DNA of 64,000 bases, from positions 992,001-1,056,000 of the forward strand of contig OY762428.1 in the NCBI GenBank assembly GCA_963665665.1. The letters run 5' to 3'. The translations under genes were made by a program, and so were the position numbers. Source of the stretch: Candidatus Kapaibacterium sp. Its GTDB lineage: Bacteria; Bacteroidota; Ignavibacteria; Kapaibacteriales; UBA2268. Of the stretch, positions 37,253 through 43,520 are shown piece by piece. The stretch's first letter is position 1; every line of letters begins with the position of its first letter. The notes below the pieces were generated by a model, which saw only the letters and a program-made list of their open reading frames with translations, searched no databases and was not told where the DNA came from.

Positions 37253-37497
37253 TGTCCGATACAGAAAATATTATCGCCCGCATTCATAAGGCTATTGAAG
37301 AAATACGGCCTTATCTTGCCGAGGATGGCGGAAACATCGAGTTTGTCCGCTGGGAAGAAGAAACGGGCGTGGTAGAAATACGATTCCTGGGGCAGTGCAT
37401 TGACTGCCCCATGGCTATTATGACGCTCAGAGCCGGAATTGAAAGAGTCCTTCTGAACCGTGTTCCGGAAGCCAGGCGGATAGAAGCTGTAAAGTGA
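37252..37497 (+). CDS. NifU-like (NfuA C-terminal) protein
   Basis: IRPYLAEDGGNIE, GQCIDCP, TLRAGIE; overlaps the mrp stop. Confidence 0.9.
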   Translation: MSDTENIIARIHKAIEEIRPYLAEDGGNIEFVRWEEETGVVEIRFLGQCIDCPMAIMTLRAGIERVLLNRVPEARRIEAVK

Positions 37498-37526
37498 AAT
37501 ATTTTTTCCAGACTTGAAAAAAAGTG

Positions 37527-37558
37527 TTTGGCAGATTAAAATAATCTCCGTAAATTTG
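37527..37558 (+). promoter_or_regulatory. Bacteroidota-type -33/-7 promoter for the tRNA locus
   Basis: TTTG(37527)-N20-TAAATTTG(37551), 13 nt before tRNA-Val. Confidence 0.6.
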
Positions 37559-37571
37559 TATCTCACTTGAG

Positions 37572-37646
37572 GGGCGAGTAGCTCAGTTGGTCTAGAGCAC
37601 CTGCCTTACAAGCAGGGGGTCGGGAGTTCGACTCTCTCCTCGCCCA
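37572..37646 (+). tRNA. tRNA-Val(TAC), copy 1
   Basis: Acceptor GGGCGAG/CTCGCCC-A; anticodon arm CCTGC-CTTACAA-GCAGG; T arm GGGAG-TTCGACT-CTCTC; CCA not encoded. Confidence 0.96.
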
Positions 37647-37774
37647 CAAGAAACCTCAGTGATTCATTTGCCGGGGTTTTGTTTTTTGAAAAAGGATTTG
37701 GACTGATGATAGGTTCGTGGGTTTTGTGGCCTTGCGCCCATTGTCTATCGCCTCGGGCAGCCAAAAAGTTCTTT

Positions 37775-37859
37775 GCAGAAGTGGCGGAATTGGTAGACGC
37801 GCTAGACTCAAAATCTGGTGGCCTTTACGGTCGTGTGGGTTCGAGTCCCACCTTCTGTA
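37775..37859 (+). tRNA. tRNA-Leu(CAA), copy 1
   Basis: Acceptor GCAGAAG/CTTCTGT-A; CTAGA-CTCAAAA-TCTGG; long variable arm; GTGGGTTCGAGTCCCAC. Confidence 0.96.
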
Positions 37860-37878
37860 CAAATTGAAAATTTATTCC

Positions 37879-37953
37879 GGGCGAGTAGCTCAGTTGGTCT
37901 AGAGCACCTGCCTTACAAGCAGGGGGTCGGGAGTTCGACTCTCTCCTCGCCCA
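37879..37953 (+). tRNA. tRNA-Val(TAC), copy 2
   Basis: Identical to copy 1. Confidence 0.96.
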
Positions 37954-38922
37954 CAAGTAAAGAGATATTCTTAATTGAATATCTCTTTTTCTTTTATATA
38001 GCAGCTTGATTTTTTTCATCTTATACAATTAGTGATCTCTCGCCCCGTGTCTTACGCACGATCGGGAGTTCGACTCTCGCCTCGCCCACAAGAAAAACCT
38101 CTGAAACGGGGTTTTGTTTTTTGAAACAGGATTTGGACTGATGATAGGTTCGTGGGTTTTGTGGTCTCTTGCCCCGTGTCTTACGCACGATCGGGAGTTC
38201 GACTATCTCCTCGCCCACAAGAAAACCTCAGTATTTTTATGCTGAGGTTTTTTTATTTTCTCTCGCCCCGTGTCTTAACGCACGGTCGGGAGTTCGACTC
38301 TCTTATCGCCAACCATCAAATAAGCTTCGATACATCGATATCGAGGCTTTTTGCGTTTTAGTATTTCCTCTGGTCCTTCGCCCCGTGTCTTAACGCAGCC
38401 TCGGGTGTTCGACTCTCGCCTCGCCAACCATCAAATAAGCTTCGATACATTGATATCGAGGCTTTTTTGCGTTTTAGTAGATATTATGGTCTCTCGCCCC
38501 GTGTCTTAACGCACGCTCGGGAGTTATCCCTCCTCGCCCACAAGAAACCTCAGTGATTCATTTGTCGGGGTTTTGTTTTTTGAAAAAGGATTTGGACTGA
38601 TGATAGGTTCGTGGGTTTTGTGGTCTCGCGCCCCGTGTCTTAACGCACGATCGGGAGTTCGACTCTCTCCTCGCCCACAAGAAACCTCAGTGATTCATTT
38701 GCCGGGGTTTTGTTTTTTGAAAAAGGATTTGGACTGATGATAGGTTCGTGGGTTTTGTGGTCTCGCGCCCCGTGTCTTAACGCACGATCGGGAGTTCGAC
38801 TCTCTCCTCGCCCACAAGAAAAACCTCTGAAACGGGGTTTTGTTTTTTGAAAAATAATGGTTCTCGCGGGTTTATGGTCTTGCGCCCATTGTCTATCGCC
38901 TCGGGCAGCCAAAAAGTTCTTT

Positions 38923-39007
38923 GCAGAAGTGGCGGAATTGGTAGACGCGCTAGACTCAAAATCTGGTGGCCTTTACGGTCGTGTGGGTTCGAGTCCCACC
39001 TTCTGTA
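38923..39007 (+). tRNA. tRNA-Leu(CAA), copy 2
   Basis: Identical to copy 1 (offset 1148). Confidence 0.95.
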
Positions 39008-39026
39008 CAAATTGAAAATTTATTCC

Positions 39027-39104
39027 GGGCGAGTAGCTCAGTTGGTCTAGAGCACCTGCCTTACAAGCAGGGGGTCGGGAGTTCGACTCTCTCCTCGCCC
39101 ACCA
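39027..39104 (+). tRNA. tRNA-Val(TAC), copy 3 (CCA encoded)
   Basis: Identical body followed by CCA at 39102-39104. Confidence 0.95.
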
Positions 39105-39982
39105 TCAAATAAGCTTCGATATATCGATATCGAGGCTTTTTGCGTTTTAGTAGATATTATAGTCTCTCGCCCCGTGTCTTACGCACGATCGGGAGTTCGA
39201 CTCTCTCCTCGCCCACAAGAAAACCTCAGTATTTTTATGCTGAGGTTTTTTTATTTTCTCGCGCCCCGTGTCTTAACGCACGATCGGGAGTTCGACTCTC
39301 GCCTCGCCCACAAGAAAAACCTCTGAAACGGGGTTTTGTTTTTTGAAACAGGATTTGGACTGATGATAGGTTCGTGGGTTTTGTGGTCTCTTGCCCCGTG
39401 TCTTACGCACGATCGGGAGTTCGACTCTCTCCTCGCGCACAAGAAAACCTCAGTATTTTTATATGCTGAGGTTTTTTTATTTTCTCTCGCCCCGTGTCTT
39501 AACGCACGGTCGGGTGTTCGACTCTCTCCTCGCCCACAAGAAACCTCAGTGATTCATTTGCCGGGGTTTTGTTTTTTGAAAAAGGATTTGGACTGATGAT
39601 AGGTTCGTGGGTTTTGTGGTCTCGCGCCCCGTGTCTTAACGCACGATCGGGAGTTCGACTCTCGCCTCGCCCACAAGTAAAGAGATATTCTTAATTGAAT
39701 ATCTCTTTTTCTTTTATATAGCAGCTTGATTTTTTTCATCTTATACAATTAGTGATCTCTCGCCCCGTGTCTTAACGCACGATCGGGAGTTCGACTCTCG
39801 CCTCGCCCAGCAAAAATAAGTGAATAAAATTTATCACTTCTAAATTCAAAATGCGATTAAAATATTTACATAATCCCAAGAAAGGTTATTATCGATTTTT
39901 CAGAAATAAAGTTAGAATCTTTATTATTGAATAAATTTTTTGTATATTATTATTTAATGTTTTATCAAATGGAGGAAAGCCC

Positions 39983-40402
39983 ATGAGAGACTTTATTGGC
40001 ATTAGCCGAAAGGAATTAACAGTTTATTTCATTGTTGTAATTGCTTTAGCGATAATTCCACTATTTATTGTTATGAACTACAGTTTTTTTATTGATGATT
40101 ATGGCAAACCAAACATGGTACTAATTGGCTTTTACGATTTTTTTGCAGTATTGGGTAGCCTGCAGCTTTTTGGAATTCGTATCGCCAGCCTTGTGATATT
40201 AATAATAGCCGAAAGAAGGTTGGAAAATCCAAACTACTGGTGGGCAGCAGCCGGGTTAGTATTTGGTTTTATTGCAGTAATTGCATATATGGCCTGGTTT
40301 GTTATCAACCGCCTGAATATTATCTCCAACCCAGAGGACAACAATCAAAGTTTAATTGAAAATATTAAAAATTTTGTTAGAAAGGTAAGATCATGGACCT
40401 GA
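39983..40402 (+). CDS. Hypothetical membrane protein (paralog of next gene)
   Basis: GGAGG RBS; several hydrophobic helices. Confidence 0.7.
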   Translation: MRDFIGISRKELTVYFIVVIALAIIPLFIVMNYSFFIDDYGKPNMVLIGFYDFFAVLGSLQLFGIRIASLVILIIAERRLENPNYWWAAAGLVFGFIAVIAYMAWFVINRLNIISNPEDNNQSLIENIKNFVRKVRSWT

Positions 40403-40746
40403 CAAAAAAAGAAATAATGATATACGCTATAATTGTTATTATTTGTACCGCTCTTCCACAAATAATAATGTATTATCCGACAATATTTATGCTGACACAC
40501 AGCACTGGCGAACCTATGAACCATAATATCATAAATTTATATTCCCCGGTAAAATGGACTTGTATGCTGCTGCTTCATCTGTCATCTGCTGTTTTAATTG
40601 TCCTTGCAGAAAAAAGAAAAGGCGGCAAAGTTTCTGCAATTGCTGTTCTGCTTGGGCTTTTCCTGAACTTTCCAGGCTTTATAGCTTATATGATCTGGCA
40701 GGTAATTGATAGAAAAAAACTATTTCTGGATGATATGGAAGCATGA
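40393..40746 (+). CDS. Hypothetical membrane protein
   Basis: Overlaps the previous stop; hydrophobic helices; shares KE...Y.I..I, AE.R and IAYM.W.VI.R motifs with it. Confidence 0.7.
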   Translation: MDLTKKEIMIYAIIVIICTALPQIIMYYPTIFMLTHSTGEPMNHNIINLYSPVKWTCMLLLHLSSAVLIVLAEKRKGGKVSAIAVLLGLFLNFPGFIAYMIWQVIDRKKLFLDDMEA

Positions 40747-40963
40747 AAATGCGATACAATATAATTTTTGTTATTAATCAATATTTGTATTGACTTGATT
40801 ACAGATCAAAACAATTGTAAAGTGCATTTTTATGACATATCAATTTGAATTGGAATAAAATTCAATCAATTTATTTATAATATTTCTTTCCATTTTTCAA
40901 AATAATTGATAATTTGGTAAGATGTAATCGGGGGTAAATTACCAAAATATACCGGGAAAAATC

Positions 40964-42781
40964 ATGAGAATTGTTCATTTAGTTTTGATTATCACTATCC
41001 TATCATTCTTTTCATGCCAATATGAGCCAACCGGAGTTAACCATCTTGAAGTGGATTCTGAAGCTACGACTCCTGTGATGACGATTGATTTCGATGGAAA
41101 CAATGACACATTAATTATAGACGGGCCTACTTATCTGCGTTTTAAATATTCTACCGGAGATAAGAACCTGAATTTTGCTTATACTTTTATTGACAGCAAT
41201 GAAATTAATTCAAAGCTTATTGACGATGATTACATCGAATGTTATTTAGCTCCACAAAATATCGGATCCGGGTCTTACGAATTTACTGTATTGCTGTTCT
41301 CAAATTCTCAGACAGGCAGCATTGCTGACCTTTTAAAACTCGAAGGATTTTTATTTGCCAGAACATGGACACTCATCGTTATTAACAAATCCGACATGAC
41401 TCCTGAAATTACCGGCTATGAAATTGAAAACGGATTACTTAAACTCAATTTCAACCAAAGCAATCCGGAACTAATATCCGAATATATACTTAATAAAAGA
41501 TTATGGTATGTTGAAAGCAGAGCAGTCGCAACAGAAACGGACCCGGAAAAAAGATTCATTTTCGATGACTCTTATGTTGGGGAAAAGGCTACTTATGTGC
41601 TCATTTCAAAAACAGTTTTCGGCTATGAACTGGAATCTAAAATATTCTCTATAAATAATAATTTACCGAGTGTTACAACGGAAAACTATTCTTCTTTTGA
41701 TGAAATTCATTATCAATGGGAAAAATGTCCATACTACAACGCATTTGAAGCATATAAAATCACTCTTCCCGGTGGTGAAGAAAAAATTATAAACGATATT
41801 GATCAGACCAGCGGGGTTTTTAACTCTATATTTGGTAAAAATGTAAGGTTTAACATCACTTTGATACCAAAGAACAAGCCGGATAATTTCGAAGAAATAT
41901 CAGACAGATATACCGTTGAAACCTATTTGTCTCCTGGTGAAACTCTCCCTCATTCGGGTATTCCATTCAGAATCGGAAATAAACTTTATATCCCACAAAG
42001 TTATAGCTGGATTAAGTATGATCCTGTAAGGAATATTTCATCATCAACAATTTGTTTCCCATCCGGACAAATAAGTTGTTCCTATACACAGAACGGAAAA
42101 TATGCTTTTATTGGGTACGCTCACGACCATCAGTTAATATTTTTCGAACCGGAAACAGCTGTATCAATGAATCCTATCAAAACTGAAAGCCTTGTAGGTG
42201 AAGAAATATTTATCTTGGAATCTGTTTTGTCTGACAATGGAATTGCAGGTTTCGGTCATTCAGATGGTGATCTGTATTTGTATGATTTTCCTAATAATAA
42301 GTTCATTGGAACAGTTGATATTGAATATGATATCAGGGGACTTGCAATATCTTCCGGAGGGAAATATTTACTTGTTGAAGATTTTGCAAGAACAAGATTA
42401 TTCGATATAGGTGATGATATAGTTGAGTCAGACAGATTGCAGGAAATAAAAAGCGGAACTTTTGACGAAATGCAATTCCTGACAACCGATCCGGATCTAT
42501 TTATATTTAAAGAATATGGAAAATTTAGAATTATTAATGCTAAAACTGCCGAGGAGGTTTCTTCTTTTGAAGTTGATAATAATGAAGATATTGTTTATTA
42601 CGACCTGATTAATAACAGATTAGTAACAAACGACCGTAATTATATACGAATATATAACTTTCTGACCGGCGAACAGATTTCAGATGATATCCCTCATGAT
42701 CTCAGATATGACCAAAACGGCTGTGTGCTGATCGGTGATTATCTATATGTTGAAGGCGGAAAAAGAGTGAAGGTGTTTTAA
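40964..42781 (+). CDS. Hypothetical lipoprotein with beta-sandwich and C-terminal beta-propeller-like region
   Basis: Lipobox FFSC; GSIADLL..EG motif; ISSGGKYLLV-type blades. Confidence 0.65.
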   Translation: MRIVHLVLIITILSFFSCQYEPTGVNHLEVDSEATTPVMTIDFDGNNDTLIIDGPTYLRFKYSTGDKNLNFAYTFIDSNEINSKLIDDDYIECYLAPQNIGSGSYEFTVLLFSNSQTGSIADLLKLEGFLFARTWTLIVINKSDMTPEITGYEIENGLLKLNFNQSNPELISEYILNKRLWYVESRAVATETDPEKRFIFDDSYVGEKATYVLISKTVFGYELESKIFSINNNLPSVTTENYSSFDEIHYQWEKCPYYNAFEAYKITLPGGEEKIINDIDQTSGVFNSIFGKNVRFNITLIPKNKPDNFEEISDRYTVETYLSPGETLPHSGIPFRIGNKLYIPQSYSWIKYDPVRNISSSTICFPSGQISCSYTQNGKYAFIGYAHDHQLIFFEPETAVSMNPIKTESLVGEEIFILESVLSDNGIAGFGHSDGDLYLYDFPNNKFIGTVDIEYDIRGLAISSGGKYLLVEDFARTRLFDIGDDIVESDRLQEIKSGTFDEMQFLTTDPDLFIFKEYGKFRIINAKTAEEVSSFEVDNNEDIVYYDLINNRLVTNDRNYIRIYNFLTGEQISDDIPHDLRYDQNGCVLIGDYLYVEGGKRVKVF

Positions 42782-42782
42782 A

Positions 42783-43520
42783 ATGAAAAAATTAATTACA
42801 ACATTGCTGTTTATCTGTTTAGGTATTGTTGAAATGCATTCCCAGATAAGCATAAGTTTGCAAACAGGATATAATACGGTTGAAAAACCAAATCTGAATG
42901 AATTGAACCAGTCCTTACTGGAAGCACTTCCCTTTCAGGCAGGAATTGTTGATGATTTTCCTGATTATGTTTACTTCCAGGGAGCTTTTCTGATTTACCT
43001 TCAGAATTTTGATTGGGGTATTAATATGGCATATACATCAACCGGATCCAGAATCAGTTATGAGGATTACTCAGGAAATTACACACAGGACAATTTTGTT
43101 TCGGCCTTCAATATTGGTTTTTTAATTCAAAAGAGATTTAGATTATCCGGTAAGCACCAGGGAATAATATTTCTTGAAGGAGGATCGGTCATATCATTTC
43201 TAACAATAGAAGAGAACATCCTGATAGGGGAAGTAAACGAGAATTACAAATATGATTTTGAAAATACATCTTTTTATATCTCTCCGGGTATTAAATACCA
43301 ATACCCGGTTTATGACTTCCTACGTGTTGGATTAAGCCTGTCATATTTCTTAGATTTGAACAAGGAATATCATTTAAAAAACAATGACAATGCCATATTA
43401 ACATTAGAAAATAGCGGAACAAAAGTAAAAAGCAACTGGGATGGAATAAGATTTGGCATTTTGGCTGAGTTTTATATCAAGTCCATTTTCAAAATCGAAG
43501 AACCAGAGTACGGTATATAG
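42783..43520 (+). CDS. Hypothetical outer-membrane beta-barrel protein
   Basis: Signal peptide; alternating beta-strand pattern; STGSRISYEDYSG and NWDGIRFGI motifs. Confidence 0.6.
   Translation: MKKLITTLLFICLGIVEMHSQISISLQTGYNTVEKPNLNELNQSLLEALPFQAGIVDDFPDYVYFQGAFLIYLQNFDWGINMAYTSTGSRISYEDYSGNYTQDNFVSAFNIGFLIQKRFRLSGKHQGIIFLEGGSVISFLTIEENILIGEVNENYKYDFENTSFYISPGIKYQYPVYDFLRVGLSLSYFLDLNKEYHLKNNDNAILTLENSGTKVKSNWDGIRFGILAEFYIKSIFKIEEPEYGI

Follow-up and report, generated by a model that had tools for sequence, protein, structure and literature searches.

A large tRNA-linked repeat array of tRNA-Val pseudogene units in a Candidatus Kapaibacterium genome

A 64,000-nucleotide (nt) stretch of the genome of Candidatus Kapaibacterium sp. 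(NCBI GenBank assembly GCA_963665665.1, contig OY762428.1), referred to here as the window and corresponding to genome coordinates 992001 to 1056000 of a single contig of 5,458,198 bases (5.46 Mb), contains an array of tRNA genes and tRNA fragments at window positions 37572 to 39809 on the + strand. The array consists of three tRNA-Val(TAC) genes, two tRNA-Leu(CAA) genes, and 13 repeat units of approximately 53 nt, and the units are dead tRNA-Val pseudogenes. The array is an unusually large new example of a known, neglected kind of element, the tRNA-linked repeats (TLRs) of Escherichia coli, and not a new kind. The analysis established its anatomy, the pseudogene state of its units, its higher-order duplications, its restriction to one lineage, and its likeness to the E. 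coli TLRs. As to its origin, a cassette made of a pseudogene and a terminator was probably amplified and shuffled by recombination within a Val-Leu-Val operon, and the array is most likely a by-product of recombination, not a new device.

Anatomy of the array and state of its units

ARAGORN and the Rfam tRNA model agreed on exactly the three tRNA-Val and two tRNA-Leu genes that an earlier, sequence-only reading of the window had named (Table 1). The Rfam scores were 72.1 bits for tRNA-Val and 57.9 bits for tRNA-Leu, with a gathering score of 29, and the remaining Rfam matches in the region (sX4 and YrlA) lay far under their gathering scores and overlapped the real tRNAs. Of the genome's 52 tRNA genes, none outside the array was a Val(TAC) or Leu(CAA) gene. 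With units denoted u and spacer classes denoted A to E, the order of the locus was Val-A-Leu-Val-B-u-C-u-D-u-E-u-E-u-A-u-A-u-C'-Leu-Val-E-u-D-u-C-u-D-u-A-u-B-u.

Every unit ends in a 27-nt core made up of the tRNA-Val T-arm and 3' acceptor strand. When up to three mismatches were allowed, the core had 15 matches on the + strand, all of them within 37572-39809, and none in 100 shuffled sequences. These matches comprised the 3 real genes and 12 units (3 units with no mismatch, 7 with one, and 2 with three); in the 13th unit, at 38517, 3 nt of the T-loop are deleted. The claim of 13 units that keep the T-arm and the 3' acceptor strand was thus confirmed, as were the start-to-start distances of 95 to 137 bp between the fragment units. 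No copy of the core was found elsewhere in the genome. In an alignment of the 13 units, the mean column identity was 94%, and each unit consisted of an approximately 26-nt half that does not look like tRNA, followed by the core.

The spacers, which are 40 to 108 bp long, fell into five recurring classes: A and B, with four and two copies, respectively, and C, D, and E, with three copies each, one of the C copies being a variant that precedes the second Leu gene. Every class bears a terminator or terminator-like hairpin. A terminator scan gave 14 matches on the + strand of the array (3.7 expected), representing 11 distinct sites, and none on the - strand. In classes B to E, terminator-like hairpins are followed by T-runs; in class A, folding revealed an interrupted hairpin and a T-run that lie outside the loop limit of the scan. 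An origin of the spacers elsewhere in the genome was considered and rejected, with only chance matches of 14 to 22 nt outside the array. In addition, the non-tRNA half of the units has another relative, decayed more strongly, in the leaders of both tRNA-Leu genes. Leaders and units have in common the pentamer TCGGG, at which the units switch to perfect tRNA identity, and this identity boundary is sharp and lies at the same position in all units.

The sequence-only reading had placed the whole locus downstream of one promoter. A single TTTG-N20-TAnnTTTG site was indeed present at 37527-37558, the only + strand occurrence of the TANNTTTG motif in 37400-39990; the consensus is that of the Bacteroides-type promoter motif, and sigma-70-like hexamers are likewise present at the site. 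A single transcript is no more than putative, given the 11 distinct terminator-like hairpins inside the array.

Neither ARAGORN nor the Rfam tRNA model (E<=1) called any of the 13 units as a tRNA. The core was identical to tRNA-Val in 3 of the 13 units and mutated in the other 10, and the T-stem was fully paired (five pairs) in 5 of the 13, with the changes uncompensated. Six units share a change that disrupts a T-stem pair, indicating that this change was spread by duplication and not removed. The acceptor strand is altered in three units. The units have no 5' acceptor partner, and neither a cloverleaf nor a paired combination of T-arm and acceptor stem was found in them. Folding z-scores for five units were -0.06, -0.75, -2.66, +0.29, and -0.99, compared with -2.98 for the real tRNA. 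Furthermore, variable columns numbered 13 of 27 in the tRNA-derived half and 8 of 27 in the other half, which would place any constraint, if anything, elsewhere than on a tRNA mimic.

The units had been described as lacking the 5' acceptor strand and D-stem. In an A-type cassette, the 45 nt that precede the core could be aligned to nt 1 to 48 of tRNA-Val, a result equaled by 9 of 5,000 shuffles, and tRNA-Val scored best for this stretch among all tRNA genes of the genome. The alignment implies that in A- and C-type cassettes the 5' part is degenerate and not simply missing. By sequence comparison, then, the unit appears as a full-length, badly decayed pseudogene in A- and C-type cassettes and as a truncated one in B-, D-, and E-type cassettes. 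The units are not tRNA-like RNAs, and selection for mimicry is unlikely to have shaped them. The proposal that they supply tRNA-half-like decoy RNAs accordingly found no support in the sequence, in which 10 of 13 cores are mutated, 5 of 13 T-stems are intact, and the tRNA half is no better conserved than the rest.

Table 1. Positions of the promoter, tRNA genes, units, and spacers in the window
Feature	Position	Strand	Remarks
Promoter TTTG-N20-TAAATTTG	37527..37558	+	Sole recognizable promoter; 14 nt upstream of tRNA-Val-1
tRNA-Val(TAC) gene 1	37572..37646	+	Without encoded CCA; 72.1 bits
A-type spacer (hairpin and T-run), then tRNA-Leu leader, similar as far as TCGGG to the units' non-tRNA half	37647..37774	+	
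tRNA-Leu(CAA) gene 1	37775..37859	+	57.9 bits
tRNA-Val(TAC) gene 2	37879..37953	+	ARAGORN, Rfam tRNA model
B-type spacer	37954..38034	+	Terminator hairpin 37959-37988
u1	38035..38088	+	Core 1 mismatch, T-stem 4/5 pairs; then C-type spacer 38089-38163
u2	38164..38217	+	Core 1 mismatch; then D-type spacer 38218-38257
u3	38258..38312	+	Core 3 mismatches, acceptor strand altered; then E-type spacer 38313-38372
u4	38373..38427	+	Core 3 mismatches, T-stem 3/5 pairs; then E-type spacer 38428-38488
u5	38489..38540	+	3-nt T-loop deletion; then A-type spacer 38541-38622
u6	38623..38677	+	Core identical to tRNA; then A-type spacer 38678-38759
u7	38760..38814	+	Core identical; then C'-type spacer and Leu leader 38815-38922
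tRNA-Leu(CAA) gene 2	38923..39007	+	ARAGORN, Rfam tRNA model
tRNA-Val(TAC) gene 3	39027..39101	+	CCA encoded; then E-type spacer 39102-39161
u8	39162..39215	+	Core identical; then D-type spacer 39216-39255
u9	39256..39310	+	Core 1 mismatch; then C-type spacer 39311-39385
u10	39386..39439	+	Core 1 mismatch, in acceptor strand; then D-type spacer 39440-39481
u11	39482..39536	+	Core 1 mismatch, T-stem 4/5 pairs; then A-type spacer 39537-39618
u12	39619..39673	+	Core 1 mismatch; then B-type spacer 39674-39754
u13	39755..39809	+	Core 1 mismatch; last unit, unique sequence after

Duplication within the array, spread among relatives, and likeness to known systems

Multi-unit blocks of 128 to 242 nt recur within the array at 96 to 100% identity (repeat families D2, D3, D5, and D7). 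These included the block 38054-38240, which recurs at 39276-39462; the block 37927-38054, which recurs at 39647-39774; and two Leu-Val modules of 242 nt, 37720-37961 and 38868-39109, which are 98% identical (family D5). Such recurrence would be expected from unequal crossing-over between shared blocks of approximately 55 to 60 nt.

Repeat arrays of this kind break short-read assemblies. In two short-read runs of one sample carrying the same organism label (X1 and X3), the word depth fitted the assembled copy numbers, which argues against an assembly artifact. The word depths in X1 were 32.3 and 50.3 for the flanks, 39.3 for a unique piece (38261-38559), 69.5 for a B-spacer piece present in two copies, and 127.5 for an A-spacer piece present in three exact copies. 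Units and spacers were also present in a data set with another organism label (X4), the flanks of which are 98 to 100% identical, with a junction that is absent from the window (38531 joined to 39801), and in a metagenome (X6), the downstream flank of which is approximately 93% identical, with the junctions 38507-39775 and 39478-38035, likewise absent from the window. The array is therefore present in a narrow lineage and has been rearranged within it. In X6, the core had diverged about as much as the flank (2 of 27 positions in the last unit versus 19 of 291 beyond it; the units compared may be non-equivalent), a pattern that hints at neutral decay.

In the search of relatives for similar arrays that the sequence-only reading had suggested, including a model of the units, units were found, reordered, in the X4 and X6 contigs, and none were found in 129 family genomes. 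In an order-wide scan for the core, 57 of 200 other genomes had at least one match, and at least four matches occurred in one genus alone (g9; five of five genomes). In the four genomes of this genus that were inspected, three tandem full-length tRNA-Val(TAC) genes lie 126 to 166 bp apart in every case, and a separate Val-Leu pair was present in both genomes of the genus inspected for it (G185 and G202). Elsewhere, the order was Val-Leu-Val (G030) or Val-terminator hairpin-Leu (G179). The unit pattern, with up to three mismatches, was found in none of 60 relatives. A sequence-only Infernal model, R1, was built from the 13 units, and its full-length matches were these same 13 units only, at 61.1 to 75.7 bits. 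Among the 129 other genomes of the family, 97 had partial matches to R1, none above 35.5 bits and none starting before model position 12; most of them started at positions 23 to 27, representing the T-arm and acceptor part of the relatives' own tRNA-Val genes. Many of these genomes are fragmented bins in which repeats were perhaps left unassembled, and the result therefore applies to the genomes searched. In exact-pattern scans, the unit, written in the nucleotide code of the International Union of Pure and Applied Chemistry, had no match in public genome, metagenome, and viral contig collections.

The comparison with E. coli tyrT made in the sequence-only reading proved to be the right one, and the TLR architecture was verified on the K-12 record and in the E. 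coli study (PMC8144298). According to that study, E. coli has 22 TLR sequences at ten loci, with one to five per locus; the type case, tyrT-tyrV with rttR/tpr, is credited there to Egan and Landy (1978) and to Rudd (1999); and the function of the TLRs in tRNA operons is unknown for all of them, with the sole reported phenotype withdrawn. In the tyrT-tyrV locus of E. coli K-12 (NC_000913), there are six copies of the final 19 nt of tRNA-Tyr: one in each of the two genes, one in between, and three behind tyrV at a spacing of 178 bp; a 22-mer occurs in the two genes only. The present array has both defining features of TLRs. Its repeats share the strand of a tRNA operon (13 of 13 units on the + strand) and lie within and behind it, with real genes interleaved, and the units end in a copy of a tRNA 3' end, here as a 27-nt block. 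This is a likeness of architecture, with no sequence homology to be expected. The two differ in several respects: 13 units occupy one locus here, compared descriptively with 1 to 5 in E. coli; the block of identity is 27 nt instead of 18 to 19 nt; there are five spacer classes, each with a hairpin and a T-run, instead of one 178-bp unit; and two tRNA species are embedded, with a different tRNA and a distant phylum involved. In the open literature, no tRNA-linked fragment array was found described outside enterobacteria (supplementary lists may hold some), and in the literature searched the term "tRNA-linked repeats" was confined to an E. coli study and an editorial.

As a separate observation, the 178-bp units of E. 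coli K-12 (NC_000913, 1286699-1287539, - strand) hold, by eye, an internal stretch that resembles the variable loop and T-arm of tRNA-Tyr. If this stretch is real, the E. coli TLRs would likewise be decayed tRNA pseudogenes.

The locus also resembles plain tandem tRNA duplications, since family relatives have three tandem tRNA-Val(TAC) genes or a Val-Leu-Val arrangement, and judging from sequence comparison a locus of this type is likely to be the ancestor of the array. In plain duplications all copies are full-length, whereas of the 16 Val-derived copies here, 13 are dead and share a 5' half that is not tRNA. The CRISPR-like layout noted earlier turned out to be superficial and limited to the regular repeat-spacer look. 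A CRISPR array was rejected: the spacers recur in five classes, the repeat of approximately 55 nt is tRNA derived, and no Rfam CRISPR family matched (E<=1). No cas families were matched among the flanking open reading frames (ORFs) that were tested.

We infer that the array would have arisen as follows. A tRNA-Val pseudogene together with the terminator-bearing trailer behind a tRNA-Val gene would have formed a cassette in which the 5' two-thirds of the pseudogene diverged beyond function and the last 27 nt stayed those of the working gene, or nearly so. The founder event would have taken place at the shared short sequence TCGGG. Unequal homologous recombination, or replication slippage, between the shared blocks of approximately 55 to 60 nt would then have multiplied and shuffled the cassettes in the setting of an ancestral Val-Leu-Val tRNA operon. 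The units presumably have no specific function. Two generic effects are predicted as likely: a redundant row of terminators downstream of an operon with strong transcription, and a locus prone to recombination, at which the copy number of two essential tRNA species, tRNA-Val(UAC) and tRNA-Leu(CAA), can change.

Counterevidence and alternative explanations

Several points weigh against this account of the array as a recombination by-product. Simple duplication does not explain the five spacer classes, for which several ancestral Val genes or other sources are needed. The sharp boundary of identity at TCGGG would also fit a site-specific crossover. The recurrence of TLRs, at ten loci in E. coli and three here, may hint at a selected role. 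Of the sequencing runs found to contain the stretch, none was listed as RNA. Terminators precede the tRNA-Leu genes and Val genes 2 and 3, and no second promoter was found in 37400-39990; read-through must therefore occur, and the units are probably transcribed to some degree. In addition, a block of 12 columns in the non-tRNA half (38042-38053 in u1) is invariant in all 13 units, part of which is able to form a small hairpin. A run as long was obtained in 474 of 20,000 random placements in this post hoc test, and the invariance could reflect constraint on some feature of the sequence.

The liveliest alternative, which we consider unlikely, is that each cassette is a TLR-type gene for a small RNA. 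From such genes, leaky-terminator read-through, with the copy of the tRNA 3' end as a processing signal, would yield up to five kinds of short RNA tracking transcription of the operon. The precedent comes from three E. coli TLRs behind 5S rRNA genes (rrA, rrB, and rrF), for which the E. coli study (PMC8144298) describes transcripts that arise by read-through, are processed close to the repeated end, and in vitro bind Hfq and CsrA. Like these, the present units are inter-terminator sequences that end in the 3' end of a stable RNA, every unit lying between hairpins, and both the need for read-through to reach the downstream Leu and Val genes, for which no promoter of their own was found, and the invariant 12-column block would suit such genes. 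Unlike the E. coli sequences, which according to that study are single, conserved across enterobacterial genera, and transcribed, the present units are known from sequence, confined to a single narrow lineage, and decaying. Moreover, four of the five units tested showed no unusual folding, the core decays freely (10 of 13 copies mutated), and the same study gives no known function for the TLRs in tRNA operons, their one reported phenotype having been retracted (PMC8144298).

A second alternative, which we regard as very unlikely, is that the array is a selected dosage device, with the repeats kept for quick gain and loss of Leu-Val modules. The array does contain every Val(TAC) and Leu(CAA) gene that the genome has, the two 242-nt Leu-Val modules are 98% identical, and the order of the array differs in close relatives. 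The duplicated modules would suffice for a change in copy number without the 13 dead units, relatives manage with plain tandem Val genes, and none of the evidence here distinguishes selection from a side effect. The earlier suggestion of a recombination platform for tRNA dosage is thus plausible as a consequence of embedded genes, multi-unit duplications, and reordering among relatives; as a selected function it was not demonstrated.

A history of integration was assigned a still smaller probability. In this explanation, the units would be scars of site-specific integration (attR-like junctions produced by a tyrosine integrase acting at the tRNA-Val T-arm and 3' end) or spare landing sites. 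Fragments of tRNA genes left by integrative elements (attL/attR), reportedly described by Williams in 2002, likewise consist of a partial 3' copy downstream of an intact gene. Captured att sites often have an arm that is tRNA-like but diverged. The layout of the units, an arm followed by an identity block to the tRNA 3' end and then a trailer, with a boundary that is sharp and the same in all units and an arm that is tRNA-like yet diverged, is of this form, and the genome does host tRNA-targeting integrases. According to one source, an integrative element leaves a single fragment, and such fragments delimit islands of kilobase size that carry an integrase (PMC9897764). The Val units, in contrast, lie 95 to 137 bp apart without an element, a spacing that leaves no space for one, and no integrase, island, or other mobile gene was found within or beside the array. 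No ORF of at least 80 aa with a domain was found in the array, the flanking ORFs encode Mrp/NifU and unknown membrane-type proteins, and no element with an integrase was found between a fragment and an intact gene. All copies of the core are inside the array, which leaves no island flanked by a remote copy. Neither the unit nor the 27-mer had a match among IMG/VR viral contigs in the exact-pattern scans, so that no matching attP was found there. Finally, five trailer types would require five separate clean internal deletions.

The integrase-linked repeats that the genome does have are different. Three tRNA genes have a distant copy of their 3' part, giving single direct repeats of 90, 49, and 50 bp with their start in the anticodon loop and with distances of 26, 24, and 16.5 kb, respectively, between the copies, and tyrosine integrases (PF00589, E ~1e-23) adjoin the tRNA gene at both pairs tested, Asn and Arg. 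The suggestion that the units are decoy att sites for integrating elements was not supported. As observations on these pairs themselves, two related islands of approximately 24 to 26 kb are located at tRNA-Asn and tRNA-Arg(ACG) (loci 1404400-1411400 and 4020900-4025800, with direct repeats of 90 and 49 bp), and they have a common start order: a 356-aa tyrosine integrase, a 375-aa protein with MORN repeats and an aspartyl protease, and a 389-aa protein without a Pfam family. The third pair is located at tRNA-Thr(CGT), with a 50-bp repeat 16.5 kb apart.

An assembly artifact in which a repeat was wrongly expanded is extremely improbable: repeats of this type are difficult to assemble, but the genome is one 5.46-Mb contig, the word depths of X1 and X3 match the copy numbers, and the variation between units is of a sort that no artifact would create.

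A coding reading, assessed on ORFs of at least 80 aa, was also rejected. The two such ORFs in the array (38640-38912 on the - strand and 39336-39596 on the + strand) are both made of repeat units; the 99%-identical duplicate (38054-38240) of the region of the second has no such ORF; and a 1-nt length difference in 4 of the 13 units shifts the frame. Beyond the array, four co-oriented ORFs of 139, 117, 605, and 245 aa lie directly behind it (39983-43520) and matched no Pfam family; the 245-aa ORF had a weak, below-cutoff NCBIfam match to a TDE1717-type outer membrane beta-barrel family. A type IX secretion system sorting domain is encoded next to the array; together with the Bacteroides-type promoter motif, it points to the Bacteroidota or their kin.

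Further tRNA-linked arrays in the genome

All 52 tRNA genes of the genome were scanned for copies of their ends within 2.5 kb; this end-copy scan was complemented by a tandem-repeat scan and by reading of the loci. Two additional tRNA-linked arrays were identified, one at tRNA-Leu(GAG) and one at tRNA-Ser(GCT). Behind the tRNA-Leu(GAG) gene (4537739-4538263, - strand), there are five tandem units of approximately 123 bp, running towards a convergent tRNA-Ser(GGA) gene. In each unit, the gene's trailer, which has a hairpin and T-run, is combined with a Leu pseudogene that has undergone internal deletion, the parts of which are a shortened 5' acceptor strand, a variable arm, a deleted T-loop, and a 3' acceptor strand. 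These units were found in none of 80 family genomes.

At tRNA-Ser(GCT) (1891000-1892800, - strand), four perfect 84-bp tandem units lie upstream of the gene, each joining the 5' acceptor strand and D-arm of tRNA-Ser to a well-formed foreign anticodon arm with the anticodon GCA (Cys). Behind the gene are two 369-bp repeats, each with an 81-aa GIY-YIG ORF (PF01541, E 8.5e-18) that occurs twice in the genome; in these repeats the end of the ORF replaces the 5' part of a Ser-type body with the same GCA arm, producing a hybrid pseudo-tRNA. The repeats may be a homing-endonuclease-like insertion that targets tRNA genes. ARAGORN called both hybrids at the Ser locus tRNA-Cys (91 to 93 nt), and the Rfam model gave no tRNA match (E<=1), an instance of how such arrays seed false tRNA calls. 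Cys codons would be misread by a Ser-bodied tRNA that is intact and has a Cys anticodon.

The occurrence of the same architecture at three loci of a distant lineage suggests that the process that makes TLRs is general to tRNA operons. A stronger version, in which TLRs are a general, cross-phylum feature of tRNA operons and the three arrays of this genome are factories of read-through small RNAs, with the tRNA end-processing machinery, recruited by the copied tRNA 3' end, cutting out the inter-terminator RNAs, is quite unlikely in our judgment; if true, it would mean a set of short RNAs, five kinds of them at the Val locus, that report transcription of the tRNA operon and hence growth rate. With five cassette types and rearrangement from strain to strain, the locus is a richer natural system than tyrT and could be useful for the question of whether such repeats are junk, terminators, or RNA genes. 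For the organism itself, the sole tRNA-Val(UAC) and tRNA-Leu(CAA) genes lie in a recombination-prone array, and their dosage may therefore vary between strains.

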